Shown here: positions 161-42,467 of the stretch, in pieces
Position numbering within the stretch: position 1 is the first letter of the stretch
Layout of the letters: each line of letters opens with the position of its first letter
Assembly (NCBI GenBank): GCA_973895155.1
Contig: OZ316892.1
Span: 5,995,878 to 6,059,877, forward strand
Length of the DNA: 64,000 nucleotides
Reading direction: 5' to 3'
Origin: Marsupella aquatica
Taxonomy: Eukaryota > Plantae > Marchantiophyta
Notes under the pieces: generated by a model
Databases searched by the model: none
What the model was told of the DNA's origin: nothing
Seen by the model: the letters and a program-made list of their open reading frames with translations, nothing else
Program-made: the position numbers and the translations under genes

Positions 161-1118
161 TGAAAGGAGTCCTTTCCGTAGGATGGGGATCGGAGATCGG
201 ATCATGGAGTCTCTGGCTAGTAGTGCGAGCCCGTTTCCACATTTTGGTGCATCCGGCGCTGTGAGCGATACTACAAAGGGTTAGAACTATTTCACACTAC
301 TCTTCCCTAAGTACCGTTGTTTCGGGGTTTGACACGATTGTGCTGCCTGGAGTTGAATGTTTCAGGTCGAGTTTACAGTTCGCCAGGGATATCAATCGAA
401 GTTGTACGTATATGGTCCATTTGGAAGAGGATCATAGAGGTCTTAATAATGTCTATCTCGCTCTCTACAGGGACTGCCAGGAGAGCTTTCTGTAACATGG
501 GGATGAAATTTCGAATCATGGAGTCTTTGGCAAAAAAGAGCCTGAGTAAGAAAATTATACTTTCTTTAAGCGCTGTGGATGATGCAAAGGGTAAGAAAAC
601 TCGTCTCTTTAAGACATGTTAATTTGACATGTGCTGGCAGACTTCCTATCGATCATCTATTCAGCTATAGTGCCGGAGGGATATAGAAGTTGCAGGGGTT
701 CTTCTCTGGATAGATATTTTAATCTCGCTCGTTTTTACATACAACAGGGTCTGAATGGAGAGCTTTCTGCAAGATGGTGATCCAGTGTGATCGAGTCATG
801 GAGTCTCATGCTACTGATAATAGCCTAAGTGGTAGAAAATGCTTCCGTTTCCAAATTTTGGGGCATGCCTTATGAGCGGTACAAAGAGTAAGAACTCTTT
901 CGAGCCTAACTATTCGTTTCGGCAACTTGAAATGCGCTGGTAGGACTTCGATCTGTGGAATGTAGTGCTCTAATTTAGATTGTCCGAGAAACAAAGTTGT
1001 CGGTTTCAATTAGCTCTGGAGAAGCATAGATGCTTAAATATTTCTTTCCCACTCTAAACAGGGTCTGAAAGGAGAGCTTTCTGTACGATGGGGACCGAAA
1101 ATCAAATCTTTGAGCCTC
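161..1118 (+). repeat. Degenerate ~300-bp tandem repeat (4 copies); the last copy contains the dioxygenase start codon
   Basis: Core GGAGAGCTTTCTG..ATGGGGA..ATCATGGAGTCT recurs at ~165, ~480, ~757 and ~1071. Confidence 0.75.
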
Positions 1119-3326
1119 TGCAGGATCTGGAGTTCAGCACCCCTTCCATTTTTTACGGCAGGGATCCTACGTTCGTCCTAGAGCCACAGTTTCGACCAAC
1201 AACGAAACACAATGATTTCGTAGAGCCTCTGGGCGACCAAATTCCTAGTATTGACCTTTCCCCTATCCATCAAAAGGATGCCGAAGGTTTGAAGAAGCTT
1301 GTTAAAGAAGTAGAGAAAGCAGCTCAGGAGTGGGGTTTCTTTGAAGTCGTAAATCATGGAGTACCTCTGAGTCTGATTGACACATTGGAGAAGGAGGCTC
1401 TGGCCTTTTTCTCATTGCCACTTGATGGAAAGAGCAAAATTCTCCGAACTTCTGAACGACCTTTCGGGTACTTTTATCAGGAGCTGACGAAGAATCGCAG
1501 AGACTGGAAGGAGGTGTTTGATTTTCTCGTCAAAGAGGGTGTCTCCTTTTCAAGCGCGGATGGTTCTCTTGACGTGCACAGGATAACCAGCCAGTGGCCA
1601 GAAGAACCAATAGGCCTACGGTATTGAGTCTGATCGATTTCTCGTAATTTTGCTCTGATCTTCGTTCTGCTCTTGTGTTGGACAGGAATTTTAAATTATA
1701 AATGCCTGGCTTGCATTTTGACGACAAAGTTCATTTTGCTGACCTTGAGAAGTTTAATATAGTTGCAGCTAACTGTTAATCCCTAGTTTAAAACTCACAT
1801 GAGATTGTTCTCAGTGTGACCTATATATTTATATAGCTAATGGCAATATAGCAAAAGTTGGGGTCTAGGTTTGTAGAGTGAAGCATGATTCTAGAATTAC
1901 ACCAAAATTTATGTGGATGAAAATAATGACATATTATGTATATCCAATTGAGTATCATGATTAATTATTTTTTTCGTCATTTCTTACTATTAATTCAATC
2001 TATTAACCTGGGCATTCAGGCTCGTATAAAACTCTCAATGGTGGTATAAAGTACTCTCAATGGTCAGGGAGCTTAATATGGTTGCGTCTTTGCGTTGGGC
2101 TGCGATGACTCAGACAGTACGTGAGTATTGGTTTCCTTGCTAACTAAGGCGTAACTTTGCTGAGCAAAAAGAAACCTCTTGAAGGCTAATTGTGTCTCAA
2201 GCGAGTACGTTGCTCGTCATTCTTGTTCAGAGATGCCTGCCAGCAATACGCACGAGCAACAGAGAAATTGGGTTTCGAGCTGTTGGGCCTTCTCTCTCAG
2301 AGCCTTGGTTTGGGACCAGAGTATTTTCACAAGCACTTCAGCAACCAAACCTCTTCTATCCGTGTAAACCACTACCCACCTTGTCCAATCCCGGACCTTG
2401 TCCTCGGGGTTGGCGGGCATAGGGATCCGACTGCTCTCACGATCCTAGCGCAGGACAAGGTGGGAGGTCTTCAAGTGAGACGCAAGGATGGAGAATGGAT
2501 TGGGGTGAAGCCCAGGGGCAATGCATTCGTCATCAACCTAGGTGACCAGTTTCAGGTATTACGCTTGCTGTTTATTATTTGGCTGTGTGTTCAGCAAACC
2601 ACTTAGACTGAAAGATCTCCAGGACTTTTATCTATGTGAACGTCAGAGAAACATTAGAGTTGCATGGTCAATGAGAATACCTTTCCAAAAAAGCACTTTC
2701 AGTCCACAGTTCTCAGAGTGCATGGTATGCCGGTATACTTTAGAGAGAAGGTGTACATCTTTAATGGGCGTCCTTGCAACTTTCCACTGACCGACCAGTG
2801 TAACAATTTTCTAGTGCGAAATGCTTACTTTAATGCAAATCGTAAACAACATTCAATTGGGAATCCAGAGTGCTAGCTAGCTTTTCCCTGGACGTTGCAA
2901 TAAGAGTCCAGGGTTTTAGATTCTGCAATTCTGGCGGTATATATGGACGATCTCGTTTTTCATCTCGAACATCTTACACTATATAAAGAGACTTCATTTG
3001 TGCATGTTATTACATCATCTCAACTTTCAGAGAGCTTCTACCACCCTGCATACGTTGTCCTCTCGATCTTGCAGGTCTGGACCAACAAGAAGTACCGCAG
3101 TATTGAGCACCGAGTGGTGGTGAACCAGAACTACGCAAGGCTCTCGTGTGCGGTTTTCATGGGTCCTGGAATAACAACAGACGTTTATCCTCTACCAGAA
3201 TTGCTGCAAGGCCAGCCGCCCAAGTACAGTCGCTACAATTACGGACACTTCATCAGCAGGAGGGTGGCAGGGAACATCCAGCAACTTGCAAGGACGGTTC
3301 AGATAGATGACTATGAAATCAATTAA
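1088..3326 (+). CDS. 2-oxoglutarate/Fe(II)-dependent dioxygenase (plant DOXC class), 3 exons: 1088-1620, 2231-2555, 3075-3326; 369 aa
   Basis: IPSIDLS and WGFFEVVNHGVP (DIOX_N), DWKEVFDF, NHYPPCP, Fe ligands H-R-D...H and RLS 2OG-binding motif; GT-AG junctions join in frame (533+325+252=1110 nt). Confidence 0.95.
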
Positions 3327-3660: not shown

Positions 3661-4822
3661 AACTATTGTGTTTGAATTTTCCTTTTCTGTGGGGTTTCAT
3701 CTATTTCCCTTCAATAATCTTTTTATTTTCAAAAAGGGAAACTGTCCCACCATTTATTCCAAACCAGCGGGAAAAAACCATGACGCCAATTATTAGATGG
3801 GTAATAGGAAGAGCCTTAAAATGTGTCATCCAGGTCAGAGTGGCCGCAAAGCCTACTCCTGCAGGTTGTCCCCTTGTGAGCAGGACTCCCCCCCCCCCAT
3901 TTGCACACCTAGTCATATAAAAGGCCCCCTGGCCTGCCAGGCTACTGTTCATTCCTGCATGCCAGAAGTGAATAGTGGAGCCTAGTACCTTAAAACGTGG
4001 AGCTCACCTTTAAAAGTTTTCCTTAGCTAGATATGCACATCTAAGAGCTACCTCTTAAAAATCCGATAAAGACATCATCAAGGCAACTTGCATTTGTCTT
4101 GTTTTGAAAGATATGACCCTAAAGAGGAGTCTGGCTTCTTGGGGACTTCTTTTGACTGGCTCATTTTTTTGGTTTATGGGACCTTTACTGATGCTCCCAT
4201 GGTCCCCTTGACCCATTCCGCTTCTGTGGACCGTGATATCTTTCACACCCTCACTCCAGGGAATTGGCTCTTCTTGGGCTCAGCAAATTGAAGCAATTTA
4301 GAAAGCTGTTTCCAGCAAGTTCATATTTCTAGTTTTCACAAAGAAATGCACAACTAGATTTTGTTGCGTCGGATGCTAACAATACCTCCTCATAATCGTC
4401 GTTAATATAATTTACGACTTCCATGACTACGTTTATAACTACGTCCGATGTAACTAAGATGTCAGAGAAATCTTAGTGCCCATTGCCCCCATTTTAACAT
4501 CGCTGGAAACATGTTTAAAATTAACGTCTCTGGATGAGCTGTCCTAAACGTCGTTCTGGTCGTCGTTCAATATTAACGTCGTAGTCGAGGACGTAATGTG
4601 TTTAGGGTATCACGACGTCAATGTTTACGTCATAAAGGGAGCCGTTAAAGTGGTAACGTAGCTCTGTACAACGTTCCAAATGAATCAAGCCATGTTAGAC
4701 GTTGAGTACATTGGTGTGGCTGACTTGAATGAGGAGTAGTCCATGCTGACTCGAGTATAGCTTGGGTTTTCTACGGGAGGATTTTGGTTTAAGAGTGCTG
4801 AGACCAAAGTAGGCTTGCGTTT

Positions 4823-5445
4823 GTGATTTTTGGAGAATGCACTCTTCCTGAGTACAGAGAAATTGCAATGTGGGATCAGTGTTCAGTCATGGTGCGCAAG
4901 TTCTTCAAGGATGTGCATTGTTGCTTCCTTCCACTTGGTGAAGAGGACAAGACTATACATGGGTTCTTTTGTCGGGGAGGTGTTATTGAGAAGTTGTGTA
5001 CGAAACAGACTACTTGCTGGCCTATACGTGGAAAAACGTTGTTGAGCACTTCAGTGACTACCATGGATTGATCGAGCACTTTGCAGAGACAGTTCATTTC
5101 ATTTCTATCCGTTGGGTAGAGTGCTCAATTCTGGCCAACAAACAGTTGGATCCAGGAGACTTCCTGCTGCATCCAGGTGATGATCAGATGTTGGATGAGG
5201 CGCCCAACCCAGATGATGGGGAGGCATATCCACCTACATTGCCCAAATGTGAGCTGTCTCCGACTGAGCTTCACATTGTCTTGTATGATTACAAGGAAAG
5301 TTGTGCAGCTGAGGTTGAGGCTGAAAGGCTAAAGACTGGGGAAGAGGTCGTCCGGAAGAAATGGAACCAGAGGCAGAGGCGTGATTCTTACAAAAGAAGG
5401 AAGGCAGATGAGGAGTACTACTGGTCTGGTGAAGGAACTCCTTAA
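4823..5445 (+). pseudogene. Frameshifted ORF of unknown function inside the CACTA element, convergent with the transposase
   Basis: Overlapping ORFs 4823-5071 and 4996-5445 have protein-like composition and lie between two ACGT-rich noncoding blocks; no domain recognised. Confidence 0.45.
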
Positions 5446-5971
5446 GTAGCAACAATCTGGATGTCAGTGGATGAGGCAGTTTAGTGATTCGGCTAGGTTA
5501 TAGTCGCTTTGTGGTGGACATGCAATACAGTGCTTTGTAGGACCTTTGTATCTCTATATCATACTGAATCTGAATAAAGACTCCCTCATGTTTTTCATTT
5601 TGAATGCATGTGCCAATTAATGTCACCACTGTCATTAACGTCGCACGGATATATTTATATAGTAACATTGCAATACATGACGTCTTTGGTTTAATACGTA
5701 CCCTAAAACAACGTAAGTTAGTGTAACGTCGTTGTATGTGGAGAATCAACGTCGTGTGGAATAAAGTAAACTGGGTCGTGGGTAAATTAATGTCGTTTAG
5801 GGCTCAATAAAATGACGTTAATTGGAATTAACGTCTGCCTAGTACGACGTAGTTTGTAGATACATTGGTCTACCAGACGTAGTAGTCATACAACGACGTT
5901 ACCCACAAATGCTACAAACCCACATGAAGGTGGCCATAACGAATATATACATGCACTGAATACATTTATGG

Positions 5972-8900
5972 TCATGGATCCATATCATCTACAATTACTG
6001 ATACCATCAAACCCTTCCTCCATCGTGGGAAGATGGGAATGACGATGAACCATCCTCTCATAGTGTGCATCGGAACCATAATACACTGATCCACCTGGCT
6101 AGGAAATACTATAGTGTCACTAACCTCAGTCCCGGATGGTGCTACACGAGTCGTGTCTACCCGATAGAACCCACACTCATCTTTCACCATGGTGGCTCTA
6201 TGTGGAGGTGACATGATGGATTTGTGCCACCGCACCTCTAACACAGTAGTATTAAATGACCCAAAGTGAACGTCTAAAATATCCAATACAGTGCCACAAT
6301 AGGGAATCTCAACATCACCTGGGTCTGTCAACATGAACACTCCTGAGTTACATGTACTCTTCTTCATGTGATCTGTCCTCCAAGTGCGAAAGTGGTGCCT
6401 TGACTCATACATGTGTGTATGGGTCGTTGCCCACAACCCTGGTCCCCTAATGATGTTCTGTACATCAATGGGAATGGATAAGGGTCCATGCTCTGCAAGG
6501 AGCCTATCCATGCGCTCCAATGCCCATACGCAAAATAATGCACACCGTCGTGGAACTATCGGTTGCTGCTCCAAGAATGCACTGCAAAAAATGTATGAAT
6601 CCATGAGAATATTGCACAATCCAAAGAAGTGCTACTTGAACCCACTCTAACTTCTACACACATAGAATGTAGAACAACATCTACTGTTAGATTAACATAT
6701 ATAGAGAGTTGCATATATGTACCTATGCAACTCCCTCCACTGAGACATCTCTGGGCGATTTCCCAACACATAATTGTGGATATGTAGGCGAAGTATGTCG
6801 TCATGTAGTGAACGCTTTTTTGATGCACCAATCAAACGCAACCCACCATTGTCATCATCTTGTGCCTCTTCCCAAGCTGTGGGAAATTCTATGTCCAAAC
6901 TCCCTATCATCCCTCCGGAATAAAAGAGGCACTCCGACATGATATACCCCGTTGCCATACTTCCCTCTGGTCGAGCTGGTTGACGCACCATGGACTTGAG
7001 CACTTTCATGAAGCGCTCTACCCAATACATCCAACGTGCATGGATAGGACCAGCAATCGCGACCTCATCCACCAAGTGACATAGTAAATGCAATTGCATG
7101 TCAAATATGCATGGGGGAAACACCTTCTCCACATTGCACATCACGCGAGCTGACCTCTCCCTCATCAAAGGAATCTCAGACTCCTTTATCTCCTTAGTGC
7201 ATACCCACCTATGTTCCTCCTCAAAACCATCAAAGATTTTGTATATCAGATCCAAATAGGGCCATAGAAAAATGAGTTTGAAATACTTGTTGAATTACAG
7301 GGCTCCTCCAGCGGTAACAAGAACTTGCAAGAGAGCAATGGGAGAGATTTTGGTTATCATACCTGAAAATGGAGCACATCTCATATATAGTCAGACGGAG
7401 TAAACGACGCTCCCGAGAATCATCACAACAACACAAGATTGCTGGTAGCACATGTTGTATCAACTTGTGATAATCATGAGACTTCAACCCTATTGGGGGT
7501 ATGTGATCATTCCTTGTAGTGCACCCACAAAAACCAGCTCCGTAATGGCTAGGGAACTTCATCTCGCTTATCATCCCATTCATGTCCCTCAAAACCTCTC
7601 TTGGCAAAATCCAAGGACCAGGAGGTTTCTCCCCAGTACATGTTATCCAACAACTCTTCACTACTCCAACCCTCTCAGCATCCTCTCGGACTCCACGAGT
7701 GTCATTCGTCCCATAAATGTGCTTCACCAAGTTCTTAGCAACATTCACTTCAATGTGCATGGGGTCCAACAACCATCGAACCTGGAGTCTCTGGAAATTG
7801 AAATAACATATTGAATCAGTTGCAATCTCTAAATTAAGCATTTTATTGGTCTAATTTGCTGTAAAGGAACCATGCACTTCTATCACTTACCCTCCAATAA
7901 GGCGAGTCCCACATAGCTAAGCGTCGGTTTACTCCACAATCCTTGGGTTTCAGTAACTTTGCTTCCACCTTCTCTGCCATTTGAATTTGTCCTTCAGCTG
8001 AAGGGCCATTAGGACATGGCCGCACTTCAGTCTCTGCCCAATGTGTTGTGTTTTGTCGCAAGTGGTCATCCATTGCCAAACGGACCCTACTGCTCTCATA
8101 TGTGGTTTTGTGCAGTAGTCTTGAGTACCTCCCACGCAACTCTGGGCCACATGAAGGGCAAGCTGAAAAACCTGCCACCTTCAGGCCAGATATTGTCCCC
8201 GTACCTGCCATTTCATTGAACCATGTTCAGACCACAAATAACCCCAACACTTGCATTGTACATGACATTGTGCAAACAATAGCCATTGGGTTGCCCAATG
8301 AATTACCTGGACCATCTGTGGTGCAATGAGTGATCATCACCCTCATATTGAAGGTCCTGCCATTGCCTGCTTCACGAGTGACATCTGTTGTCACTGCTCC
8401 AACCTCCCACAGATTATGTAGCTCTTCATAAGCTGGAGCCAAACAGATATCAGGATTCTTACGGGCCTTGGGTCCAGGAATTATAGCTAATAGAAGCACA
8501 TGACCCTTCTTCATTGCCAACCATGGAGGGATGTTCTGATTTATCAAAAGAACAGGCCAGATGGACTTAGGCTTCCGTCGTTGTTTATATGGGTTCACTC
8601 CATCGATTGCCAACCCCAAACAAACATTTCTTGGCTCCTGGGAAAATTTGGCCAAGTGGCATCAATGTGCTTCCACGCTGGACTATCTTGGTGGTATTGC
8701 ATTATCCCTGGTGGGGATTTGTTCTCCACATGCCAAGTCTGTAGTGTGGATAAGTGCTTTTGTCAGTAGAGATGCTGAAGTCGGGGAGTGATTGGGAAAT
8801 AACAAAAAACCTGCCAGATCCAATGTAACGTCGTCAATTCGACGACAATCACACTAAACGTCCTTCCACACTACGTATTATTAAAACTAACATCATGGAG

Positions 8901-11642
8901 GGCAACGTTTCTTACATATGATGTACCATGCAACGTTCGTTACTGCATCTCATACGACATAAAAACAAAAAAAATGTCAAGTGGAAAGACGTAAATTGAG
9001 ATGGACGACATAAATTAATCAATTACAACGTCATGTACGATGTTGTTTGAAAGAATGCAACGTTAAAAGTCGGACTTTCTTGTTCTCACATTGCGTTGAG
9101 GAAAACATTACCTTTTCTGCAATCTTGTCTCCAATGGTGTCTGGTCGATACCGTGGAAGCCTACAGTGCTCCTCTGGGCAGTGAGTGTGATCCTTGTACA
9201 CCCCTCTATACAAGATGCACCCACCTGGGCACATGTGGATAGTCTCTAAAGCCAATCCAATTGAGGCTAACAACTTTTTAGCCTCCCTCACACATCCAGG
9301 GAGAGTGTTTGGTTGGGGCAAGAGTTTGTCGTGGAACAATTGGAAGAGTGCATCTGTATGGACATCCGAACCATTGAAAACTCCTTGCAAATTCAACATC
9401 AACAAAGTTGCACCCAACCTGGATTTGCAAAACACAAACACCAGACTTTTTGCAGTTAGTCCAAGTAGCTAGATGGCATGCTTGGCACTACAACTTAGAC
9501 TGCCCAATATTCACTGGATGAAATTCCAGAGTTGTGATAATTTTAGGACAACCTTACCGTGAGGATGGAGATCCCTCAAATAGTGGTGTTCTGGCTTCAG
9601 TCTCCAACTAATCCCAATCTTCTTGATCCACTTCCATGATAGGGTGCTCGGCGTCAGGTGCATGAGGTCCAAAGTGAATGTCAACAAGGTGGGCAAAGGC
9701 ATCTTCTTCAAGCATAGGGTCATCTCCCTCATCTCCCTCATCGTCAACATCATCATCCAACTCTCCATCATATGCATCATGGTACTCCTCATCCTCATCG
9801 TCCATCTCATCATGGTCAAGGGGCCAGCGACCCTCAGCATCCTCCTCGTCTGAGAAATGTAAGGTGGCATGTACGTGAAAGGCACAGGCTGATGTAGTCA
9901 TCATTGATGGGTCAGGTGTGGGAGTAATATGTACACCATCCTAGAGTTTTCAATATGCAATAACAGATCACAATTAGAGAAAGGGTTTCCGTGATAAAGC
10001 TTACAATGAAACATCAATAATGAAAAATGCAAGGGTCACCCCATAATGGATATGTCATGTACACATGTAAACATCAATGCCAATCATAATCTACAAGAAT
10101 CTCTTCCCCTGCTCTAATGGTGCGGGTAGCATGTGTCAAGATGTAATGCGTGCATGCTATAGGCAAACAAGGGCGACTCTGGTCATGGTTCCAACTCGTG
10201 CCACTCAGCGTTTGGCCTAAACCCTAAACGCCGAGAACCAATAGTGTTGTTGATGTAACTCACCAAGTTCCCCGTGCGAGGTGGGTAACCATCAATATGA
10301 GCATACCTAGGGTCCAACTTTAGTGACATGCCATATCGACTAAAGGTTGGGCACTGTCGGGACAAAATGCGCCATCTCGCGGCCGAATACTTGGGCCCAT
10401 AGAATGGAAACAACTGAGGAAAATCATCGGGTGCACAACCGGTAGGGACCACGATATCCACAAGAGAAAATACTCCAAGTCCTACATGAGTCCCCAATGT
10501 GGAGGGGAGGATGACCCATGGGCGGTCCCAAAGTATAATAGGCTCCCGAAGCGGGAGGTCCATAGGGAGTCCAAACTGGGCTGGGAAGGAGTCCTTTAAG
10601 ATGTCCAAGGCTCTCCCTCGCAACTATCTCGGTGCCCGGGACACCGATGCATCAAGAAAAGGGCATCGGGGCGGAACAATCCTAGGTGGACGGGACTCAA
10701 TCGATCGGGGTCTAGTGGTCACCACTACTCCCCTCTCAATAGGGTGCATCCTAAACACTCTCCTCCTCCTATGAAATACACGGTCTATCTCCCTCAATGT
10801 GGCTGGCAAATCGGATGGATGGATGAGTGGTGCGAGTGCACGATATGCAATGTCTCTCAAGCGGTCCACAGGCAAAGATCGCACTACAATAGGAATCGGT
10901 TCCACATGTTCACCAAAACAAGTTCAGAATATGACAATCAAAAAATAATTCAAGGAAGGAGATGTTATCATAATTGCAATACCCAACAAAATTGTATTAC
11001 CTCTCGGGTCGGGGGGGTGTAACAACCATGGATCCCTAAATGGCTAAGGACAGTGGTCCTCTTGTGTAAGACAACACCCTTGCATCGTCTGCAAGGGCAA
11101 GGCATCTTGCAAACTTGCCCAATCCCCTGAAGAGCAGCCATGGCCTCTCCAAATCCATCAGCACGATGGGGGCTCCGGCCTCTACTGCCCTCGGAACGAT
11201 GTCTACGTCGATGACGCCTGGATCGGTGACGCCTAGATCGATCATACATGTCTGGTGAGTAATCTCTCTCTCGGTCCGACAGGTTGTCTCTCCCCCTATG
11301 ATGATGGTCATCTCTGCGTCGGGTGTAAGTACCCCCACCATGGTCCTCATAGGATGAGTCATCCCTCCTCCTCCCTCCCTCGTCATCCCTCCTCTGCCGC
11401 TCGTCATTGCTCCTATAGCCCGATGAAGCTGAACTCCCCCTATGCCGATGATGGTGTCTATGTCGGTGAGAACTACAGCCATGCTCATCGTCATCATCAC
11501 ACGAGTCATCCCTTCGCCTATCCGACTCATCATACGTCCCCCTATGATGATGATGGTATCTGTGCCGACGATGCCTGCCCCCATCATGGTCCGATGCATA
11601 GGTTGCCATGTCCTTTGTGATCAAATTTACAAAGGCCCCCAC
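5972..11642 (-). pseudogene. Multi-exon CACTA transposase (TnpD/Tnp2-like), disrupted by stops and frameshifts
   Basis: CPCRRCK..VLSHL (transposase-associated domain); CPGGCILY; YFPITPRLQHLY; EPRNVCLGLAIDGVNPY (Transposase_21); LDPMHIEVNV; GLKSHDYH; WMYWVERFMKVLK..PEGSM (DUF4218); FPSQVDQC (DUF4216). Introns 9941-11000, 9419-9557 and 8811-9111 splice in frame. Confidence 0.93.
10074..10905 (-). pseudogene. SET-domain lysine methyltransferase, decayed, nested in transposase intron 1
   Basis: GLGVFSLVDI, FYGPKY, IDG..TGNLVSYINN..PN, and after a frameshift ATRTIRAGEEILVDYDWH* (ends 10074); in-frame stops at 10624-10626 and 10183-10185. Confidence 0.85.
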
Positions 11643-12037
11643 AACATATTAAACCCCAAGCATAAACGTGTCCCGCTACGTTAACCAAACTAACGTCCAT
11701 CCAAACGACGTTCTTCTCAAATTAACGTTGTTGTTTAGGTTGCGGGGAACAAGCCAAATTTAGTTTACGTAGTTACGTACGACGTACAACGTACTTAATA
11801 AGTTAACATCGTTTGGTATGCTATAATTATGTGTAACATCGTGACTAAACCCTACACCCCTGGTTAACGTTGTGATTAGCGACGTTAAATTAGGGTAACG
11901 GCGGGTCTCCAAGGTTTGTGGGCTGCGGCTGTTTTCCTTTAACAAAACATCGGGAAGTGACTCGAATGTGACTCACATTCAACATTCAACACTTCCCCTC
12001 GCCCCCTCTTGACCTCCTATCTTAACAGTGAGTGACT

Positions 12038-13942
12038 ATGGCTCATCCAAGCTATCTCCCTTCCAGTGGAGATTTTGATGCAGACTTGGTGGCTATGGAT
12101 GATCCAGGGGAGTTAGAAAAGGTGCGTAAAGCTATGCAATCGACACATTTGCTGATACATGCTTTCAACCAGAGTTGGAAGTTCTTGGGAGGAAAAGGAA
12201 GCAAGGAGTCTCAGTTTCTGGAGTACCTGGAAAATATAGAAGCCAATGCTCCTGCCCTCGATGATTATGTGGAAACTAAGAATGCAAGGCTCTTGGGGGA
12301 GGGTGGGGGGCCTTCGATTGATGCTCTCAACTCCTTCCCGTCCCTACTAGATGATGGGTGGGACGATCCTGCCTTCAATGGAATGCAGCCTCATTCTCAG
12401 GCACCTAGTGGGACCCCAATCAAGAGCGTGGTCAGGGTAGCACATGACAAATTCCAACCTGATCAGGATCGGGACTCTCGCAGCCCGGGTCTCGCAGGCG
12501 GAGGAGGCATCGTGATAGAACACACAACAACAATAGCAGCCTTGATGAGAGAAGACGGAAGGGGAAAGGGAAGGAGTATAGAGATGCAGATCCACACAGA
12601 GGGAGATGCAAGGGCAGATAGAAGAGAGAGGTACTCACCTCAGCGTGAACGTCACTCCCACAAAAAGCGACAACCTTCTCCTGTGCGACCTGTAACTATT
12701 GCTGTGAGTCGAGACAAACTCCCAACCATCACCTTGGATGCGTTTGATGCTAGGCCGGATGTTCTGGATGAGAAGGCCCTCACAAATCGAGTGCAGACGT
12801 GTTGTGCCAAGCATTGTCCTGGTTGGACAACTTGGAAGGATCTCGCCCAGAACCCAAAGAAGTTTCAGCTCCTCCTAAACAATGTACAAGCTGGGTTTAG
12901 GAACGGCCGTGAAATAGACTATAGGCACATCAGACAGAAGATCGTAGGCTACCTTGCAGATCGGAGGTTTAGATGGAGAAACAAGGTTAAAAAAATGAGA
13001 TGCCCAAGGACAGAGCAATACCTGAAACTAGATGGAATGAGCGACGCCGACTTCAAGTTGATCGTGGCTGAGTTGGAAGCAGCACCTGACACCCCAATAG
13101 GCAAGCGAGTGCACATGGGGGACAAAGCTGCTGCAGCCCGCAAATCAAATGGCCGCCTGCGTGTGACCAATTTTTGGGGCCAGGGAGGATGGCGAGGCTT
13201 CCTTGCAACCTATGTAAGTCCCCCACCCTCTTCAAAGCACAGCTTGTTCATGCTTCGGCCGCTGCGGTGAGAACATTGAATTAACGTCATTTTTCTCCTC
13301 TAACATTGCAAGTTCTCAATTTTATGTCTACCCCCTATGTTCACCCTACCTAACGTCGTCTCTCACGATGTTACATTTAATTAACGTCCTTTGTGCATTG
13401 TTAATATGGCGGTTCCACTATAAACAACATCTTGGACGACGTTAATTAGGAAACGTCGTTATGTACAATCATTGTAATTAACGACGGTGGTAACGACATT
13501 CTACAATTTCCTGTAGAAATGCAAGTTTGGAGCCAACGCCAAGCCAAGTGAGCAGGAGCGGCTCTATTCAAAACACTATGGCCCGGAGGCCCTATGGGCT
13601 AAGCTGGACTCTGTCCCGGAGGACCACCCAGTGGTAAGTTACATAGTCAGGTTAGGTTCCTTCTATACTAAGTTTTGCATCCACTATTTGCAGGGAGGTA
13701 AACTGATCCCTTATGTCATGTGCAGGAGGATTGGAGTCCTCCAGAGGGGTTAGTGGCACGGCCCATTGCGAAAGATGAGGAGGCAGATCATGGAGGGGAG
13801 GAGCCTGATACGCAGGAGGAGGCCTTAGTAGACTGTGGGCAGGAGGGCAGTTTAGGTACACACGGCCGGTCATCTTCTGACCTCTCCCCTCCAATGGAGA
13901 CTGATAGGGGTCATACCAACCATAGACGACGGAGAGAGAGAA

Positions 13943-13975
<33 letters not shown>

Positions 13976-14238
13976 AGAGGGGGGGAGGGAGGGAGAGACA
14001 TAGAGAGAGGAAGAGGAGCCGTGTCAAGAGGGATACCACTAGGGGACACAGTGGCACTAGAGATGTAGTCCCCAGGAGTAGAGGCAAGGGAGCTGCGGAG
14101 TTGGTGTCTGGTAGTAGTAGTTCAGACGAGGATCCACTTCGGTACGAGTTGCGGCCCCGAGGCAAACAGTCGGAGGCACCGCCACGTATTTCTGTTCACA
14201 GGTCTGGACGTGATAGGAGCCGCTCTCAGTGGCATTAG
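12038..14238 (+). CDS. Second CACTA gene (possible TnpA-like accessory protein), predicted exons 12038-13213, 13517-13633, 13726-14238; ~601 aa, intact
   Basis: Long ORF with GTAAGT donors at 13214 and 13634 and TAG/CAG acceptors, all phase 0 with no stops; basic helical region, NFWGQGGW motif and R/E-rich tail. The TnpA-like call rests on position within the element. Confidence 0.7.
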
Positions 14239-16987
14239 GGTATACCATGCATGACTAGGTGGACGTCCACTTGCATTTTGTACATTTTTGGCAAAAACTT
14301 TTGACGCCACCCATTTATAGTGGCATTCCGGACTTCATATGTCTATTTTATGTGTATTCCGAGTGTATATGAACCTAAACCTAAAGCCCACCCAACTAAG
14401 GTAGCCTAGAAGGATGTTCCATACAAGATTAATGTTTACCACAAACGGCACTCCATTCACATCTCTCCATTCTTGGTACTATTTTCAAATGTTCTCGTTA
14501 ACACCATTTTTACCAAGCCTCACACGACTTACTACTCATACGTCCTGGACAGACTCATCATTAACAAAGTCACAAACTACGTAATATTAATCTGACATTA
14601 ACGTCGTTTTAAATGATGTTATCTGCTGATTTGCCTGTTCAATCTGCGTCCAGAATAACATCTTTACTTACGACGTTAATATGTAACGTAGTATGTACTG
14701 ACGTATGTAACGACATTTTGGACGATGTAAACTGTAACCTTTGTTACTTCGTACAAAACGTGCCCTGATTCACGTCGAGTGTGTCGCCTTTCTTTAGCAG
14801 CAAGGAGACATCGGGCTTAACGCCTTCATGTAACATGTAAAAAGTCCTGATAATGTAGTTGTGATGAGAGAGCTGTGAATTTCTAAAGATCGCTCCACCA
14901 CCCAATGTCCACACTTTTTGTTTTCAAAAGTTTTTTAACGGTAGCGACATTTGGTATATCTCTCTATGACCAATGGAATATTACTTTCTTCGGTTGCTAG
15001 ATTCCCAGGTATGCAACTCCCCTTTTTATAAAGCAAGTTTTTAATTCCTTATAATGGCCTTATATCCTAGAGCTCATTTTAGTCTACTAAAGTCTTGTAC
15101 CTTTCAACTCAAGGAATCCAAAAATGTAACTTAAAAAAAAACTGAACATGTTTTGATATATACAAAGTCCATCAAAACCAAATTATATGGATTTTTTTTT
15201 AATACAGGGGTGTACAGCCAAACTAGCCAACTTTTTAGGATTTTTATTAAAAAAAATTAAATCTTTTAACAAAAACTACAACACGTATAGGAATATTTTT
15301 TAATTTCATATGGAAAAAGAAGAGAACCAAACCTTTTATATGACTTGACAAATTTGGTAATTGTGATCTAGAGCCCTCCTTTCCAAGTCTACTACTGTAG
15401 GAGGAAGTAGAGCCTTGATACAAGCTAGCGCCGCAATTGGGCCAGCAAATTTAACAAAGAACTCCATGCAATCAAATAATATGTTGGGCAATGCATAGCA
15501 AATAAAATAAGTAAATGAGGGCCAAAAAGAAGTATTGTGCAAGAATGAATCACCTTGCCACAACAATTTTCCCACACACAAAATTGGAAAAGAAAAGAAA
15601 GTTCATCTCACCTCCAAACATGCATGTAGGAAGGTGGGAGGTGGATCAAGGGCAAGGATTCATCTTCAGTGGTCCCATGAATTTGACCCAAACCCAAGAG
15701 AAAATAATAATACCACTCCCATCCTTCCAACACTATTGAAAAGATAAGAAAATCAGGAGTAATAAACCAACAAAGAAACCTAAACAAATCAAAATTCATC
15801 TATTCTCCACATCATAATTCTCCCACCCATGCTTCATATGTATACTTTCAATGTTATTAGTTAGGTACAACCATGAGATATAGGTGTCCCAATAGGTGTA
15901 TCACTTGTAATACTGGGGTAATATCATATTATTAATATATCATGGTACAACCATACACTTATCTCCTATTTTAGTAGTATCTCCCCAAAAGGTTATAGGC
16001 CCACTGTAGGGCAGCCAATAAGCTGGGAGTAAAGGGTTTTACTATTTATGGGTTTATGTTTTCTGGACAACTTCAGAGCCGGAGTGCAAAAAACGATTGC
16101 TAAATACCCATAATCTCTTGTCCAGAAACTCTTGATCAATAACTTTTTCCAGGTCAGTTATTACATACTATGAAGGAGGTCTGGGGCAGGGGTTCTAGCC
16201 TGAACTGTGCTCCCTTAATGCTTGGAAAAGCTTCCTGCATGGCTGCCACCGTCCAGCATTTACTCACTTCAAACTATTACTGGAATTGTGAAAAAGATTG
16301 GAAAATCTTGTCCAAGAATGCAATAGCCCTGTACCACATTTTTCCATTGTTTTATTGAATCAGATTGAACCATGTTTGTATTCTGATTATTTCTTCAATC
16401 TAAGTGAACAATGGGGACCACTCTCTAAGCCTAAGTATTCCTCAATCACCAATAGCACACAAGTACTGTGAGGGAAAGGTGAAAGAACCCTCATACCTGC
16501 TACTAACCCCAGCCAATATGTGCTATCCTATACATAATTCCCCCTGTCAAGAAAACAGACCCTGCTTGAGGACCAGCACACAATCCTAGCAATCACAAAA
16601 AAACCTCAACAGTGCATTTGACAGTTTTATTTTGTTGGCTCCTTTCAATTTTGTCTATTCCAATAGTTGATATATTTCTTTCTGACAGCTCAAGTGCCTA
16701 GGATATGTCCCTCGTGAGTTGGTTCAACTTTGGGAGGTGTGTCACCTGTGGCCTGTGACACATTTTATCTGTATCTTTACATCTTCCTAGATTTTAGGAC
16801 AACCATTGCAAGTAAGCTAAAGAAAACTCTTATCTACTAAACAAGTATAGGGGTAGTAAGGGAGATGACTAATTTTGTCCAGCTTCTTGCCTTTGCATAA
16901 GTAGCCACCCAAAATCTTGGTAACAAGTTGGCAAAAAATACACACTGTCTAGCTACATTGAACATTAGAACTTGACCCTAAAACCAC

Positions 16988-20400: not shown

Positions 20401-20989
20401 ACACATGCTCCCTGCTCTAGTAATCTATCTTCAGCTATCAGTTTCTAGCAGTAGAATGTTCAAGATAAGCCAATGCTTATGAACGACCGACAGCATGGCT
20501 GCCTCTATGTGAGATTGGTGCTGGATTAGTGATAGTTGTGTCTTCTTCCACCCTTTACCCTCCTACTGTCATCCAAGTTTCCTTAATGAGATATTGCTAC
20601 AATACTTTCCTCGGAATGCATTCTTTCGGACTAATCGTGCGTTCGTTATGCGGAGTCGTTGGTTGAGGAAGTTCCAACCGGTTCTGCTGTACGAGCTTGT
20701 GTAAGGAAGCCACCCTTGTCTATGATTAAGTCCCTTAAGATAAATGACAGGGAGATCGTGCGAGCGTTGCAAAATGCTGAAGCGCTTCTTCAACGCTGGA
20801 AGTGAGATAGGGAATGGATGAATGAGTGGAACTTGATTTTACAAGGTCTTAACTAGATACAGCTTTGATGTGGCTTTTAGAGTATGACCAAGTCGTGGCT
20901 CTGTTGTCCTGTAAAAAACTTTTTGCTACGAATCGACGGTGATGAGGAATTTGGTCCAGTCATTTTGATTTTAATATGCTTGGTGGCGG

Positions 20990-21883
20990 ATGGTGGCTCT
21001 TGTGATGAACGTTGACCTTGGTGTTATTTTGGGTGCTTCCCTCCAGTCCTATAACAGCATGCGGGAGCTAGTCCACGTTCTTCTGCGAGTTCTACCATGG
21101 CTCATGACCACAGTTTCTGCCAATGTGATTCACTACTTCTCATTATTGATCGCCAAAGAAGAAGCCCACAGGCAAGTACTAGAAGCTGCAACTCCCACGA
21201 CTGGCAGACGTGGGAGATGGTACCCGGGAAGTGACCCCGAGGAGCATGAGCGCCTGTCGTTTGATCTGATGAACTCTCCAGCCATGAGAAAGGCAAGGTA
21301 CCTGGTCAAGCTGGTTCGCTACGGATGCACCTTATTGTATGTCGCACTATTTTGTGACTTTTTGCCAGAGCTTAGCATTGAAACTTTCTCCCCTGGATTG
21401 GGCACGATAGAAGCACTTGTTGTGGGAGTGCTGGGTGGATTGGTGACCTTGTATTTGAATGAGAATGGGGACTTTGATATAAGGACTTGTTGGAGACCTG
21501 ACGTGGACTTTGGCTCCGAGTTCTGGGGTTGGCTATGGGATGGTATCCGGATTGCTGGGGCGTTTGCCACTCCAGTTGAGGATTCACTGATGTATCATTC
21601 CTGGATATACAGGTCACTCACTTGTTATCTTACAAGAAACTCATACAACAGTTTCATAGACGTTCCATTCTTGGATTGGAATTGGGTAGCATGCATTGCA
21701 TCAAATGGCGTGTTTGCTTTGTATAATGGGAAGGAGTGGCGGAGCTCTGGGTTGATAGGAATTCTCTCATTGTGGGTTACAAGCAGGAGAGGCCAGTTGC
21801 TTGATGGAATTCTGGCTCATGGACTCTGTAGAGTGACCATCAGTACCTGGGTTTTGTATACCGGACAACGGCAATATTGGTGA
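20990..21883 (+). CDS. CPBP/Abi (CAAX prenyl protease II)-like membrane protein with degenerate catalytic motifs; probably the last exon of a longer gene (candidate acceptor at 21047)
   Basis: Hydrophobic segments; PVEDSLMYHSWIYR (cf. EExxxR), VFALYN (cf. FxxxH), DGILAHGL (cf. HxxxN); upstream exons not resolved. Confidence 0.65.
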   Translation: MVALVMNVDLGVILGASLQSYNSMRELVHVLLRVLPWLMTTVSANVIHYFSLLIAKEEAHRQVLEAATPTTGRRGRWYPGSDPEEHERLSFDLMNSPAMRKARYLVKLVRYGCTLLYVALFCDFLPELSIETFSPGLGTIEALVVGVLGGLVTLYLNENGDFDIRTCWRPDVDFGSEFWGWLWDGIRIAGAFATPVEDSLMYHSWIYRSLTCYLTRNSYNSFIDVPFLDWNWVACIASNGVFALYNGKEWRSSGLIGILSLWVTSRRGQLLDGILAHGLCRVTISTWVLYTGQRQYW

Positions 21884-26892: not shown

Positions 26893-27793
26893 AAGTGTTT
26901 GGTTTTGGTTTTTATTTTTTATTTTTGGTTTGTTTTTATTTGTTTGTGTTTTGTTTTGTGATTTTTTAAGTTTTTTTTGTGTTTTAAACCTTAACCTTAG
27001 AGCCAAATGGAGGGATATAAAGAAACACTTGTACGCACACGCTTTGAGCCTCGGTTCAGTTTGCGATACTCCGTACAAGAATTTCTTAATATCACCTTAA
27101 CAATTTAGTCTCCTTTGTTCATTAAGTAAAACATTTGCGGAGATAGAGGAATCCATGTACGCATGCTTAGAGTTTTGGCTCGGTCTGCGATACTTTGCAT
27201 GGATACCACGATTCGTCGAGAATGTTTTTACTTGAATTACAAATGAGTGTTAAGTTATAGACACCAAATCACATATGTCGAAGCAGGAATATAACAACTT
27301 TGAAAGAAAAGAACACTTTTGTGCGCATGCTTTGAGCGTCCACTCGGTCTGCGATATTTCACAAGTGTTGTCTTTCTCTTTTATTGTTGTTATATAGAAA
27401 GGTAATTAAAATCATGTGTGCAATAAAAATACATAATGCATGGGAGAAATAAACCGGGAAAAGATAATAACAATACGACTTGTAATTTTCAGGTTGGTCG
27501 TTGAATCCTTATTGGAAGGATTTTATTTAAATCCCAGTAAGATCTTGTTCCTCCCTCACATATTCCTTTTGTGAAGGGAAAACATGGTCATCGAAAATTT
27601 TAGTTTAGAGTATAGGCAAGTGTTGAAGATGATCACAAAACATGTGAATGAGGGATATGAGCCGAATCTTGTTGCTCTGGATGCATTGAAGAACGCTCGA
27701 AACACTCTCGAACATGCTAGGAATTCTAGCAAAGTGGCCGGGAAATGAAAACGGAAGGGGGCAAACGAAGAGGCAAAACAGGTTCGACACAAT

Positions 27794-29239
27794 GTGGTAG
27801 TGTCGATATGGAAAGAGATACTTTATCGCTACACTCAACCGAAACAGTATGGGGTGGACGGGTTCGAGAGGGAGTTCACAAGACACGGAGAGAAAGGATA
27901 CAAGAACTTTCTTGGTGAGATAACCCGTTGTATGCGGGAAAGTGTACAAAAGGAGGACAATTTCACACGAGAGCAAATGAAGTCATTTGAAGATGAAACT
28001 GAGAAACCGGGAGGATTTCTGGAAAATTTGGCACTCAACTTGGAGAAGCATGTTTGGGATAATTTGGCAGCCAAAGTGGAAGAGGGTGACACTACATTGC
28101 TTGGAAACCCCGGGATGTACACACACAAGAGAGAATTGCTAGTGAAGTGGAGTAAGGAGTTGGCAATGGCAAAATCTGATAGCAATGTCAAATATGCTAA
28201 CGAGATTGTGCACTTTGGGGATGTCAGCATCAAAAGTGCTCGAAAAGGAACACGTCCATCGCGTGTAGTTCCAGAGGTTAGGAGTATCCATTTTCTTAAA
28301 CCTGAGCAGGTGCACAACACACGTCGCATTGGGAAAGGAATCCAAGGAGAGGTATACACTTGTCGTATATTACATTGTCCTCTCATTCCCGTCAACGTGA
28401 CCTTAGTCGCAAAGCGGTTCAAGGATGGAGACAAGCATAAGAGACGAACTGACGCATTACAAGAAGTGCTTATGGGAGGACTGAATCATAAGGGAATCGT
28501 TGGAGCTCTTGCGTTGACTATTGAGGATCCGCCAAAACTTATTTACGATCACTATAATGGAGGTGACTTGGGTAGCTTTATTGATAAGTGCAGCATATCG
28601 TCAAAGAGCAAGGGGAAGGCACAGATCACGATGGACCTTGATTTCAAGTTTATTTCGGAGAAGAAACTCTTGTTGGAGAACCGGTTGGGAATCGCCTTGG
28701 CTTTGCTGGAGACACTGCAATACTTGCATGAGCATGATCGATTTCATTGTGATCTTCACTTTGGAAACATCCTTCTTCATTTCGATCACGAGCACGATGT
28801 GGCTATTAAGGTGTATGTTGGTTTATGTGATTTTGGCTTGTCTAAGCATAAATCACAGTGCAAATTACCAGCTAATCGGATGTGGCCCACAGCAACAGAA
28901 AAAGCAGCAACATACCAAAAACAATTTCCACAGTTGGCTCCGGAGCTTGTTCAACCTACCCCTGTCGAGTTTAGTGAAAGTACCGATATATATGCTTTGG
29001 GGAATATTTTTGAGACATTGTTGACAGAGAATTGGGATGGAATGTCTAAGGGTTCACGGTTTTTGGGGAGGGGTTGGAGTGCACAAGTGCATGGCCCCAA
29101 ATTGGATATCATAATCAGTGAAATGATGGCCACGGATGCCAAGAAAAGAATGGATTGTGCTTTTTGGAGTTTGAAGATAGTTCGAATGTTTCCAGATTGC
29201 ACATTGCATTTGCACAACAGTCCATATCTTAGAGATTAG
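27794..29239 (+). CDS. Protein kinase (ePK fold) carried by the hAT element; N-terminal extension broken by two in-frame TGA
   Basis: IGKGIQGEVY (Gly loop), VAK, QE (helix C), HCDLHFGNILL (catalytic loop), DFGLS, LAPEL, DIYALG; intronless; the frame extends upstream past TGA at 27746 and 27572. Confidence 0.88.
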   Translation: MVVSIWKEILYRYTQPKQYGVDGFEREFTRHGEKGYKNFLGEITRCMRESVQKEDNFTREQMKSFEDETEKPGGFLENLALNLEKHVWDNLAAKVEEGDTTLLGNPGMYTHKRELLVKWSKELAMAKSDSNVKYANEIVHFGDVSIKSARKGTRPSRVVPEVRSIHFLKPEQVHNTRRIGKGIQGEVYTCRILHCPLIPVNVTLVAKRFKDGDKHKRRTDALQEVLMGGLNHKGIVGALALTIEDPPKLIYDHYNGGDLGSFIDKCSISSKSKGKAQITMDLDFKFISEKKLLLENRLGIALALLETLQYLHEHDRFHCDLHFGNILLHFDHEHDVAIKVYVGLCDFGLSKHKSQCKLPANRMWPTATEKAATYQKQFPQLAPELVQPTPVEFSESTDIYALGNIFETLLTENWDGMSKGSRFLGRGWSAQVHGPKLDIIISEMMATDAKKRMDCAFWSLKIVRMFPDCTLHLHNSPYLRD

Positions 29240-29419
29240 GGTTTACACAATTTTGTAAAGGTCACCTTAACGATTATATGTTTATTCATTGTATGTCAAT
29301 TACAATGTTCTGCATTTTGTTGATAATATTCTATCAAACTTTGTCGTGAATGCCCAAAATTGTGCTAAATGTGTTTGTACATTGTCAAATATCGCAGATC
29401 TTTTGTACACATCGCAAAC

Positions 29420-31318
29420 ATGGGACGATGGGAATTGTCTTCTGATGATGAAGACAAAGAGTTCACGACACAACATCTTACCATGCAAGATGGTCAAGGA
29501 TCCTATTGTGACGATGAAGCTCTTCGTAATAATGTGTTGGATAATCTTACAACCATTGGCATTCACTATGAGGCTAAACCCAAGGTTGATGGAACACCGG
29601 CGCCAAACACAAGAAGATGGGAAGATGAGGGTATGAAGGATGAATGGAGTATATTAACGCCCAATGTAAATCCTCCCCATGACGAATGGGCCATGAATGC
29701 AAAGGAATTGGAGATGTTGATGCCAAAGAAAGACTTTTGGCCATTAGCACAACAAGTTTTTCACGATCCGGATCTTTGGGCAACAAGATCATGGGCGCAA
29801 GAAAAATTCACCATGTCCAAAGTAACACATGCAGGTGTTAAATCACATTGGCAGCAACAATATCGAGAGTTTGCTCCACACAAAGCCCAAACGAAAATGA
29901 GTTCCGTTTACCCTCCTTTTATCCGATGTCTGATTGCTGAATTCATTCTCAAGTGGAAGGTGGATTACCGTTGGGAAAACAGTGCTGGCAAGCTGACTCA
30001 TCAGGTGCATCCATCAGTGGTTGCGATTGCAACGAATAGGAATACAACTATTGCAAAGGACCCTTCAATGGAGACTTCCAACAAGGGATCCAAAAGAAAG
30101 CTAGATGACACTGGGGAGGGATATGCGCATGAGAAGGGGAAAGCGGCTGTACTTCCTCGAGTCTCCATGCCTGACCGTGCAGCACCACCAACCAATGTGG
30201 AGTCAACGCACACCAAAAAACCAATCCTTGTAGGTGTTGGGAGTAGAACTCCACATGCAAAGAACAACAATGTTACTGATGCTAACAAGGATAAGTTCAA
30301 CCTGCACAACATATGCAAGAGCTTGGGGGCAGATGTTGCAGAGGTGATTGAGACAAATCTCCGCACGAAGTATGTAGTGGAGCTATGTGAATGTGGCAGC
30401 ATCGAAAAGTTCAAGTCACAATTGCAACAAGCTGATATAAAGATGAGATCACTTGAGAAGAAGCAGAACGAGCCGACGACCAATTCGGAAGTGATGTTGT
30501 ACAAGTGTCAATTGTTTGACAAGATGGAAGAAATCAATAAGCTGACAAAACAACTTGCTGAAAAAGAGCGTCAATGCAATGAACTGGCACGACTTGAGGA
30601 GAAGGACAAGATCATTAATGATCTTAAAAGTGAACTTGCAACGCAAGCAATCATCATATCAAATCTTCACGAAGAGGTGCAAGAATTTAACAATGGTGCT
30701 TTGGGGATGAGGTCAAACAAAGGGCAAGGTGAATTATCGTCGCCAAATTTTGTTAACATGCAAATCATAGATCCTACAGGGCACAGCAACCTTTTTCCAG
30801 ATGTGGAGGTTGACGCGGAAGGTATTGATAGGTTTTTTGATAAGTGGAAAAAGGATGAAACTATGACAGCATTTGTTCGTGAAAAGGATGACAAGTGTAC
30901 TTGGTGCCTATATCCTTGGGGCCCTGAATCTGTTTCCATGTTGGGAACCTGCGGTCATATATGGCATCATGCTTGCTTGTCTAAATGGTTGAAGAAAAGC
31001 CGAAAATGTTGGTGTCGCACACCATTTCATGAACGTGAGTATGAGCAACGAGGATTGTTGAAGCAAATGCCATCAATAGAGACTCAACAAAATACTGAAG
31101 ATATGACTGAAGATATGACTGAAGATACTATACCGGCGATGCAAATAGATGAAACTCCCATTGAACATTTCACAATCAATGAATATAATTTGTCAGATGG
31201 GGAATTTGACAGGTTGTTATTCAGTGGTCGACTCGATGAGTGGAAACAATATGCGGCAGCCAACCAGCCATCAATAGATGAGCAAAATTTGCAACGATCC
31301 ATTTGGCGCCATCGATGA
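29420..31318 (+). CDS. Coiled-coil + RING-H2-like protein carried by the hAT element (ATG at 29420; ORF track starts at 29369)
   Basis: Intronless ORF over 630 aa; heptad-rich KMEEINKLTKQLAEKERQ region; CTWC..CGHIWHHACLSKWL..KCWC zinc finger. Confidence 0.8.
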   Translation: MGRWELSSDDEDKEFTTQHLTMQDGQGSYCDDEALRNNVLDNLTTIGIHYEAKPKVDGTPAPNTRRWEDEGMKDEWSILTPNVNPPHDEWAMNAKELEMLMPKKDFWPLAQQVFHDPDLWATRSWAQEKFTMSKVTHAGVKSHWQQQYREFAPHKAQTKMSSVYPPFIRCLIAEFILKWKVDYRWENSAGKLTHQVHPSVVAIATNRNTTIAKDPSMETSNKGSKRKLDDTGEGYAHEKGKAAVLPRVSMPDRAAPPTNVESTHTKKPILVGVGSRTPHAKNNNVTDANKDKFNLHNICKSLGADVAEVIETNLRTKYVVELCECGSIEKFKSQLQQADIKMRSLEKKQNEPTTNSEVMLYKCQLFDKMEEINKLTKQLAEKERQCNELARLEEKDKIINDLKSELATQAIIISNLHEEVQEFNNGALGMRSNKGQGELSSPNFVNMQIIDPTGHSNLFPDVEVDAEGIDRFFDKWKKDETMTAFVREKDDKCTWCLYPWGPESVSMLGTCGHIWHHACLSKWLKKSRKCWCRTPFHEREYEQRGLLKQMPSIETQQNTEDMTEDMTEDTIPAMQIDETPIEHFTINEYNLSDGEFDRLLFSGRLDEWKQYAAANQPSIDEQNLQRSIWRHR

Positions 31319-42215: not shown

Positions 42216-42467
42216 TTGAAGTAGTTACAAACCTGCTCCAATGATCTGCAAACCTCCCTCCCAGATGAAGTCAACTACACAGTGCAGCCTGGACACCCAC
42301 CAACCAAGACATACATAAATACAATGCCAGCTTGCGAAACTTTGCCACATAATGGGAATGAAAATTATTCTCATATATCATGGATGGTACAATTGCAGCC
42401 TTGCAAACAAAGGCCTAGTCATCCCGGACCTCAAGTCATGAACAACGCATCCATGTACTATCAGGGA

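Follow-up and report, generated by a model that had tools for sequence, protein, structure and literature searches.

Transposon-borne SET genes are known in oomycetes and red algae. Phytophthora elements of the HarbingerS and MuDR types carry them (PMC12730594, citing Repbase Reports), as does an oomycete proto-Helentron (PMC4067079), and the products have been interpreted as histone lysine methyltransferases. The red-algal Plavaka gene PAG2 (bioRxiv 10.1101/2025.02.11.637652) is likewise a SET gene within a large multi-gene element of the EnSpm superfamily, and has been proposed to act in chromatin modulation. In the Ectocarpus transposon paper, the only cargo mentioned is a DNA methylase. 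Among plant elements, the CACTA transposon Spm, described in maize and Arabidopsis, adds to its transposase an accessory protein that is either an alternative splice product or has a gene of its own (the TnpA/TnpD pair; PMC13547354; bioRxiv 10.64898/2026.08.24.746577), and the VANDAL elements encode VANC (PMC5735166). These plant anti-silencing proteins, VANC and TnpA, bind DNA motifs, and the oomycete and red-algal transposon SET proteins have been described from sequence. The locus considered here, a 10.5-kb EnSpm/CACTA element of the liverwort Marsupella aquatica with a SET-fold block in intron 1 of its transposase gene, is a variant on that theme in a land plant. It lies in a stretch of 64,000 nucleotides (assembly GCA_973895155.1, contig OZ316892.1, positions 5,995,878 to 6,059,877), called the window below, whose own numbering is used throughout. 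No SET exon in a land-plant CACTA element was found in the literature searched, Repbase and subscription journals being outside its scope.

A SET-fold block inside a transposase intron

The transposase gene is read from the minus strand. Its first exon (11001-11609, 203 codons from ATG 11609) ends in ...TRE|GT at 11001|11000, and exon 2 begins at AG|DGVH (AG|GAT) at 9940; both borders are in phase 0 and they lie 1060 bases apart, just as a preliminary description of this DNA had placed them. On the same strand within the intron, from 10896 to 10074, is a coding block of about 272 codons in sister copies, which carries GLGVF and IDGYPPRTGNLVSYINN (IDG..GN..YINN) and then, in another frame, TIRAGEEILVDY. 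The stretch HYILTHATRTIRAGEEILVDYDWH is read after the frame change, and the block closes at TGA 10076-10074. The preliminary description had correctly noted that the last motif falls outside the open reading frames. Its statement that all SET motifs are present holds for the three just named but not for the His of the NHXCXPN motif, in whose place 93 of the 98 homologues scored have Ser.

The C-terminal piece of the block matches the Pfam SET profile at E 3.2e-4 (21.5 bits against a cut-off of 22.4), and the two upstream pieces have no Pfam match. Intact homologues match the profile in 19 of 20 cases and reach the curated cut-off in 6; in a larger set of 29, which includes one canonical SET protein (P0165), 11 reach the PF00856 cut-off. 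On the profile check suggested at the outset, the piece from the window thus stays just below the threshold.

A search with the read-through SET protein returned 20 relatives of 41-60% identity, mostly whole, two of them from the liverwort Calypogeia fissa. A profile search extended the family to 133 clusters at 50% identity; 20 of these were looked up, and comprise six from Riccia sorocarpa, two from Calypogeia, one from Ginkgo and 11 without a species name. No relative was found in the viral contigs searched. A tree was built from 67 rows that cover the SET core, leaving out the 82 shorter matches of 149. In this tree the window copy belongs to a supported clade of 12 (98/92) together with both close Calypogeia proteins, a position from which alone a liverwort or moss would be the likely host. 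Linkage to a transposase is seen in both halves of a larger supported clade of 49 rows (99/95), one half holding Riccia and unnamed fusions and the other the window copy and close relatives of a metagenome locus, L001, that is not itself a row. Outside the 49-row clade no transposase linkage was seen in the tree, the Ginkgo protein included. That protein (P0113, Ginkgo biloba Gb_21150) is a distant member of the SET family, matched at E 2e-11, and could be a domesticated copy, a source gene or part of another element. Four gene models of Riccia sorocarpa that bear the label "SET domain-containing protein" (P0042, P0055, P0058 and P0110) belong to the transposon-linked family and may inflate counts of host SET genes; some bryophyte gene models of that name are transposon exons, which calls for caution in annotation.

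L001 is the sole metagenome locus confirmed among 60 candidate stretches, and the DNA-level context of the block rests on this one diverged locus together with sister contigs of the window copy. Its layout is the same: an exon 1 with CPCxxC..ATTE|GT, a 144-nt intron ending in CAG, the SET block, a 189-nt stretch ending in AG, and an exon 2 with EEDAF. The SET acceptor reads CAG|ATG, in phase 0, and L001 has one internal stop. The two SET blocks share 43% protein identity over 224 codons; at the three codon positions their bases agree in fractions of 0.52/0.62/0.35, and of the 46 four-fold sites 34 have changed. Both flanking intron pieces align no better than shuffles. Because codon-position identities, four-fold divergence and the shuffle-level intron pieces contrast in this way, the SET block is under purifying selection over a saturating time, synonymous sites being saturated. 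A one-off insertion, or cargo evolving neutrally, which the preliminary description had named as the outcome that would speak against a functional gene, was rejected: the placement in L001 is the same, and the SET codons are conserved while the intron flanks have diverged.

Predicted fold and active site

A model of the homologue P0002 (mean predicted local distance difference test score, pLDDT, 78) has a SET fold, and Foldseek matched it to 239 chains at E up to 0.001. VIA-align superpositions gave Z 11.7-11.9 at a root-mean-square deviation of 2.2-2.9 A over 116-133 residues, the best (Z 11.9) being 2.4 A over 117; MLL1, SET7/9, SET8, PRC2 and PRDM5 tie within 1 Z. At the sequence level the SET family has no match in the PDB. 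The earlier proposal was that the element family encodes its own lysine methyltransferase; the conserved family and this predicted fold bear it out as far as a SET-fold protein.

The motifs GXG, YXG and NHXCXPN characterize SET lysine methyltransferases (PMC7412744), and conservation of the corresponding residues was counted over 196 rows, cluster members and split hits included. The GXG glycines are kept in 140/151 and, for the second, 147/153 rows, the motif-III Asn in 143/155, the second Asn in 136/139 and the final Tyr in 122/125. In the YXG motif the Gly is kept in 142/148 rows, and the first position is Tyr in 54 and Phe in 37 of 92 scored, with Phe in the clade of the window copy. A Tyr-to-Phe change in the YXG motif of EZH2 raises the methylation state, favouring trimethylation (PMC3868588), and the Phe of the present family would occupy the equivalent position. 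That a divergent SET fold of the PR type can work is shown by the PR-domain enzyme PRDM9, which trimethylates H3K4 and H3K36 (PMC6917776). Judged from the model and these residues, the family has the SET fold and probably the mode of action of a lysine methyltransferase, although outside the canonical histone-methyltransferase subfamilies, and it is likely that the enzyme is active. Absence of the His is common among PR domains, and some of these domains are inactive.

A possible role in anti-silencing

The element's SET protein, which would begin with the zinc motif of transposase exon 1 (see below), would mark the element's own chromatin and so help it stay active, both the histone substrate and the activating direction being presumed. 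Bryophyte transposons are repressed in part by H3K27me3 (bioRxiv 10.1101/2022.10.24.513474), and a mark opposing that repression would be useful to such an element. The protein might be targeted through the shared zinc motif, or through the product of the divergent accessory gene, which by analogy with Spm TnpA and VANC would bind clusters of the motif ACGACGTTA.

At up to one mismatch, ACGACGTTA occurs 27 times in the window, where 5.3 occurrences are expected, and none of 100 shuffles reaches 27. All but one of the 27 fall inside the element, and none of 31 core matches falls in a coding span even though coding spans make up 7591 of the 10,515 bases. In L001 the core ACGACGT is found twice, upstream of exon 1 and within the intron. 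The clusters resemble the targets of TnpA and VANC, and by that analogy suggest a self-targeted anti-silencing system that includes a histone writer.

Taken as a whole, the proposal that the zinc-motif-SET protein counters silencing by methylating histone lysines at the element's own copies is favoured at somewhat short of even confidence. A fuller version is doubtful: that an old bryophyte CACTA lineage is a complete self-targeting writer, making either a transposase or a SET protein with Ser for His and without post-SET, guided to ACGACGTTA and laying down activating marks. If true, land plants would have in it their first case of a histone writer that is encoded by a transposon and shown to counter silencing in a sequence-specific way, with a distant relative persisting as a Ginkgo gene.

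Several observations weigh against the proposal. The fold comparison ends in a tie between H3K4, H3K27, H4K20 and PRDM proteins, all at 15-23% identity, and so points to no particular substrate or direction. The NHXCXPN motif has no Cys in addition to the replaced His. The tail past the last Tyr has a median of 7.5 aa, and, as the preliminary description had remarked of the window copy, the post-SET Cys cluster is missing (0 of 76 homologues have a post-SET CxC); in canonical enzymes the post-SET contributes to the cofactor pocket (PMC6917776, PMC3868588). With both the His and the post-SET missing, a pseudo-enzyme is possible. The TnpA-like identity of the divergent gene, finally, is not demonstrable by Pfam, Atlas or a fold model.

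One alternative keeps the spliced exon and the active enzyme and gives it a non-histone substrate, which might be the transposase itself, the accessory protein or one of the host's silencing factors. The best fold match is shared by SET7/9 (Z 11.8), whose matched structures include TAF10 and ER peptide complexes, and the shared exon 1 could bring the enzyme into the transpososome. The other transposon SETs have, however, been interpreted from sequence as histone methyltransferases (PMC12730594, PMC4067079), and this alternative has a modest chance of being right.

Another alternative, with a small chance, is that the domain is catalytically weak or dead, a PR-domain-like scaffold or decoy that binds histone tails or host writer complexes. 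The Ser in place of His and the missing post-SET would fit such a protein, as would the PRDM2/3/5 domains, which lie within 1 Z of the top match. Against it, the GXG, Asn and last Tyr are near-invariant across a deeply diverged family, the YXG position is Tyr or Phe in 91 of 92 scored, and the PR domain of PRDM9 is that of an active enzyme.

An active histone methyltransferase might also act in repression, by marking H3K27 or H3K9, and so keep the element's copies few or damp host genes in the manner of vSET, which is an H3K27 trimethylase (PMC3868588). PRC2/EZH2 is within 0.5 Z of the top match, and H3K27me3, as cited above, takes part in repressing bryophyte transposons. This reading is improbable, as the known transposon chromatin factors with such motif clusters counter silencing (PMC5735166; bioRxiv 10.64898/2026.08.24.746577).

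Since intact members of the family occur in sequenced liverworts (Riccia, Calypogeia), the idea of a transposon that writes its own histone marks can be put to a direct test. Lacking both the His and the post-SET, the family in addition probes the minimal needs of a SET enzyme.

A probable alternative last exon

The SET block is very probably an alternative last exon, spliced onto transposase exon 1. In this arrangement one transcript would give two products: choice of a near acceptor, at 10897|10896, would yield a zinc-motif-SET protein of about 475 aa, and choice of the far acceptor, at 9941|9940, the transposase. The preliminary description had seen instead an intronless, stand-alone gene (10074-10905) for a minimal SET protein. 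Both parts are revised here: the block most likely opens at the near acceptor, and the product most likely has a zinc motif ahead of the SET fold.

The near acceptor was recognized from sister contigs, which were assembled from four public runs (all 30 bins are covered in three of them and 21 in the fourth). The window copy reads CCG at 10899-10897; position 10898 differs from it in the sister contigs of all four runs, restoring a CAG that is in phase with the exon-1 donor 104 nt away (proximal intron, 10897-11000). The three AGs that remain in the window copy from 11000 to 10840 were rejected as in-frame acceptors, none being in phase. As for a start codon, the upstream in-frame ATG at 10971 was rejected since its frame is closed by the stop at 10926-10924, and the first usable ATG, at 10749, encodes a Met that is not conserved and lies downstream of a conserved N-terminal helix. 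Across the family the SET block has no conserved start codon.

Furthermore, in five homologues (P0050, P0055, P0066, P0083 and P0096) a single chain combines the zinc motif of exon 1 with SET-family sequence. The open frame of P0050, on a contig of 2141 bases, represents either a spliced RNA or an intron-free variant, and three of the remaining four are named Riccia predictions. When the fused P0066 is compared with the unfused P0059, similarity begins two residues past a hydrophobic-Gln stretch that resembles a translated acceptor, and at the border several unfused homologues open with hydrophobic residues and a Gln, as expected of a translated acceptor. In the Riccia models P0042, P0096, P0110 and P0141, SET-family sequence is continuous with transposase exon 3. 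The lack of a conserved start, the in-phase CAG in the sisters and the five fusions with exon 1 argue for an exon rather than a free open reading frame. On the other side of the balance, a blind count of the acceptor-like N-terminal signature was weak (8/35 against 2/35 in the control, likely false positives), the fused Riccia proteins are gene predictions, and both splices, of exon 1 to the SET block and to exon 2, are predicted from the DNA. The sister contigs show no splice joint, an absence that has no bearing on expression.

That the SET block is a nested gene in its own right, with a promoter and start codon in the intron, is very improbable. An ATG directly follows the acceptor in L001 and its clade, and the internal ATG 10749 exists in the subfamily of the window copy; the latter is the unconserved Met behind the conserved helix, the donor is merely 104 nt from the block, and such a gene would leave the in-phase acceptor of the sisters and the five exon-1 fusions to be accounted for. 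A cassette exon that gives a SET-transposase fusion through a donor just ahead of the last motif is scarcely credible: ten database proteins do pass from SET-family into exon-2-like sequence, several by the same GEE|GFDPP join, and the window copy has an in-phase GT at CTT|GTAGAT, but such joins drop or scramble the last Tyr that is retained in 122/125 rows, 63 of 76 scored homologues end within 15 residues past that Tyr, and the fusion proteins look like gene predictions.

Decay of the window copy

The copy in the window can make neither the transposase nor the SET protein. Its decay, already recognized in the preliminary description, is borne out by the lost acceptor, one private stop, a 4-bp frameshift and a broken transposase. 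The stop is TAG 10626-10624, a point mutation; in each of the four runs the sister contigs have a sense codon there, CAG or GAG. The earlier view that both stops of the block are a single C>T change from sense may hold for this one but not for TGA 10185-10183, which is out of frame after a private 4-bp insertion near 10189-10193. Among the sister contigs listed, the three that span the site are four bases shorter; because they lack these bases, the frameshift is private and the TGA a mere consequence of it, and decay of this codon by C>T was rejected. Within the transposase, exon 2 has a stop and exon 4 both a stop and a frameshift; the exon-2 TAG (9610-9608) is private, with a sense codon in the sister contigs.

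Of the substitutions in the block, those near-fixed against the window copy are nine replacement and one silent, and those varying among the sisters five replacement and ten silent (Fisher p 0.012), a tally that is indicative only: it covers the 25 listed in the block from the rows shown (40 of 247 in one alignment and all 11 in the other) and leaves out the rows with stops and one change that falls in a codon already counted. The private changes strike conserved residues, as where LVSYINN stands here for the LAGYINS of the sisters and the family.

Structure and surroundings of the element

The element spans 4349-14863 (10,515 bases) and has CACAACTA at both ends. The terminal inverted repeats, CACAACTAGATT on the left (4349-4360, plus strand) and CACAACTACATT on the right (14852-14863, minus strand), match at 11 of 12 terminal bases. 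A comparison of the flanks shows a 3-bp target-site duplication, ATG, at 4346-4348 and 14864-14866. The ends read CACAA rather than a literal CACTA, and have the CAC..GTG form considered consistent with EnSpm (PMC12730594). By its ends, its 3-bp target-site duplication and its TnpD-type transposase, the element belongs to the EnSpm/CACTA superfamily.

Exon 1 of the transposase contains a low-complexity R/D/H/S tract and the CPCxxC...H zinc motif, and resembles Transpos_assoc (PF13963, E 7e-4, below the cut-off). It is followed on the minus strand by exon 2 from the distal acceptor (9558-9940), exon 3 (9112-9418), exon 4 (8307-8810; Transposase_21, Pfam E 7e-31) and, over the approximate span 5972-8226 given by Pfam and tblastn, downstream exons with the Transposase_21 tail and DUF4218 (E 6.8e-29 at 6692-7294). 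The divergent gene, on the plus strand, has a first long exon at 12038-13210 and likely further exons at approximately 13517-14238. It is a candidate for a TnpA-like accessory protein; from 12038 on it has no weighty Pfam match and no usable Atlas match, and its fold model has a pLDDT of 39. A third gene on the plus strand (4692-5445) is decayed, with stops and frameshifts in its 5' part; it has no Pfam match and one homologue, P0196, at 80% identity.

The ACGACGTTA-type clusters, which are CpG-rich, are confined to non-coding spacers: the left subterminal spacer (4522-4620), the interval between the third gene and the 3' end of the transposase (5636-5901), transposase intron 3 (a copy at 8826-8834), the spacer separating the divergent genes, a likely promoter region (11691-11887), an intron of the divergent gene (13282-13461) and the right subterminal spacer (14599-14692).

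About 1 kb to the left of the element ends a host gene for a 2OG-Fe(II) dioxygenase (DIOX_N, 2OG-FeII_Oxy; 1058-3323, plus strand). To the right, the open reading frame at 20975-21880 (plus strand) has a weak match to Rce1-like CAAX proteases. Between long GC-rich inverted repeats at 26100-48300 lies a unit of about 22 kb with a hAT transposase (DUF659, Dimer_Tnp_hAT), a kinase-like open reading frame (27749-29236, plus), a RING open reading frame (29369-31315, plus), NSD-like PHD fingers (41469-42224, minus) and two unnamed open reading frames of about 700 aa (38885-40978 and 36389-38611, minus); it may be a giant hAT element whose cargo is related to chromatin. At 31884-33173 and 58058-58781, direct and inverted repeats are mixed in arrays that are possibly satellites or similar to miniature inverted-repeat transposable elements.

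Comparison with known systems

The core fold of the family is common to the minimal SETs (SET7/9, SET8, the MLL1 SET, PR domains and viral SETs), with Z 11.1-11.9 and viral SETs matched down to Foldseek E 1e-6. The P0002 chain aligns up to residue 336-337 of SET7/9, which would put the family's last Tyr at about residue 335. It differs from the solved minimal SETs in its 15-23% identity, in having no post-SET segment and in its Ser for His.

Among transposon-borne SETs, PAG2 of Plavaka is described as a separate gene in which an N6-adenine methylase is fused to SET, whereas here the SET block lies within the first intron of the transposase gene, with which it likely has exon 1 in common, and the host is a land plant. 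No methylase domain was found by Pfam in the 21, 1 and 29 proteins scanned, and no named red-algal protein is among the SET homologues looked up, PAG2 being set apart by description only. The HarbingerS, MuDR and Helentron SETs belong to other superfamilies and hosts than this CACTA family. The Helentron SET, moreover, is a canonical Clr4-like open reading frame (CDD E 3e-24; PMC4067079), unlike the divergent family described here, which scores 15-36 bits with Pfam and lacks the His and the post-SET.

Parallels in the placement of the motif clusters come from plants. In VANDAL elements a nine-base motif is likewise concentrated in introns and in intergenic and terminal non-coding parts (PMC5735166); those elements are Mutator-like, VANC as described there is not a SET protein, and the motif found here is a candidate target. 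Spm TnpA binds family-specific clusters of 7-10-bp motifs; the clusters here are alike, so that binding may be supposed by analogy, but they are also present in internal spacers and introns. TnpA itself activates by binding DNA, depends on host DNA demethylases and does not remove H3K9me (PMC13547354; bioRxiv 10.64898/2026.08.24.746577), whereas the alternative product of the liverwort element would have a predicted enzyme fold.

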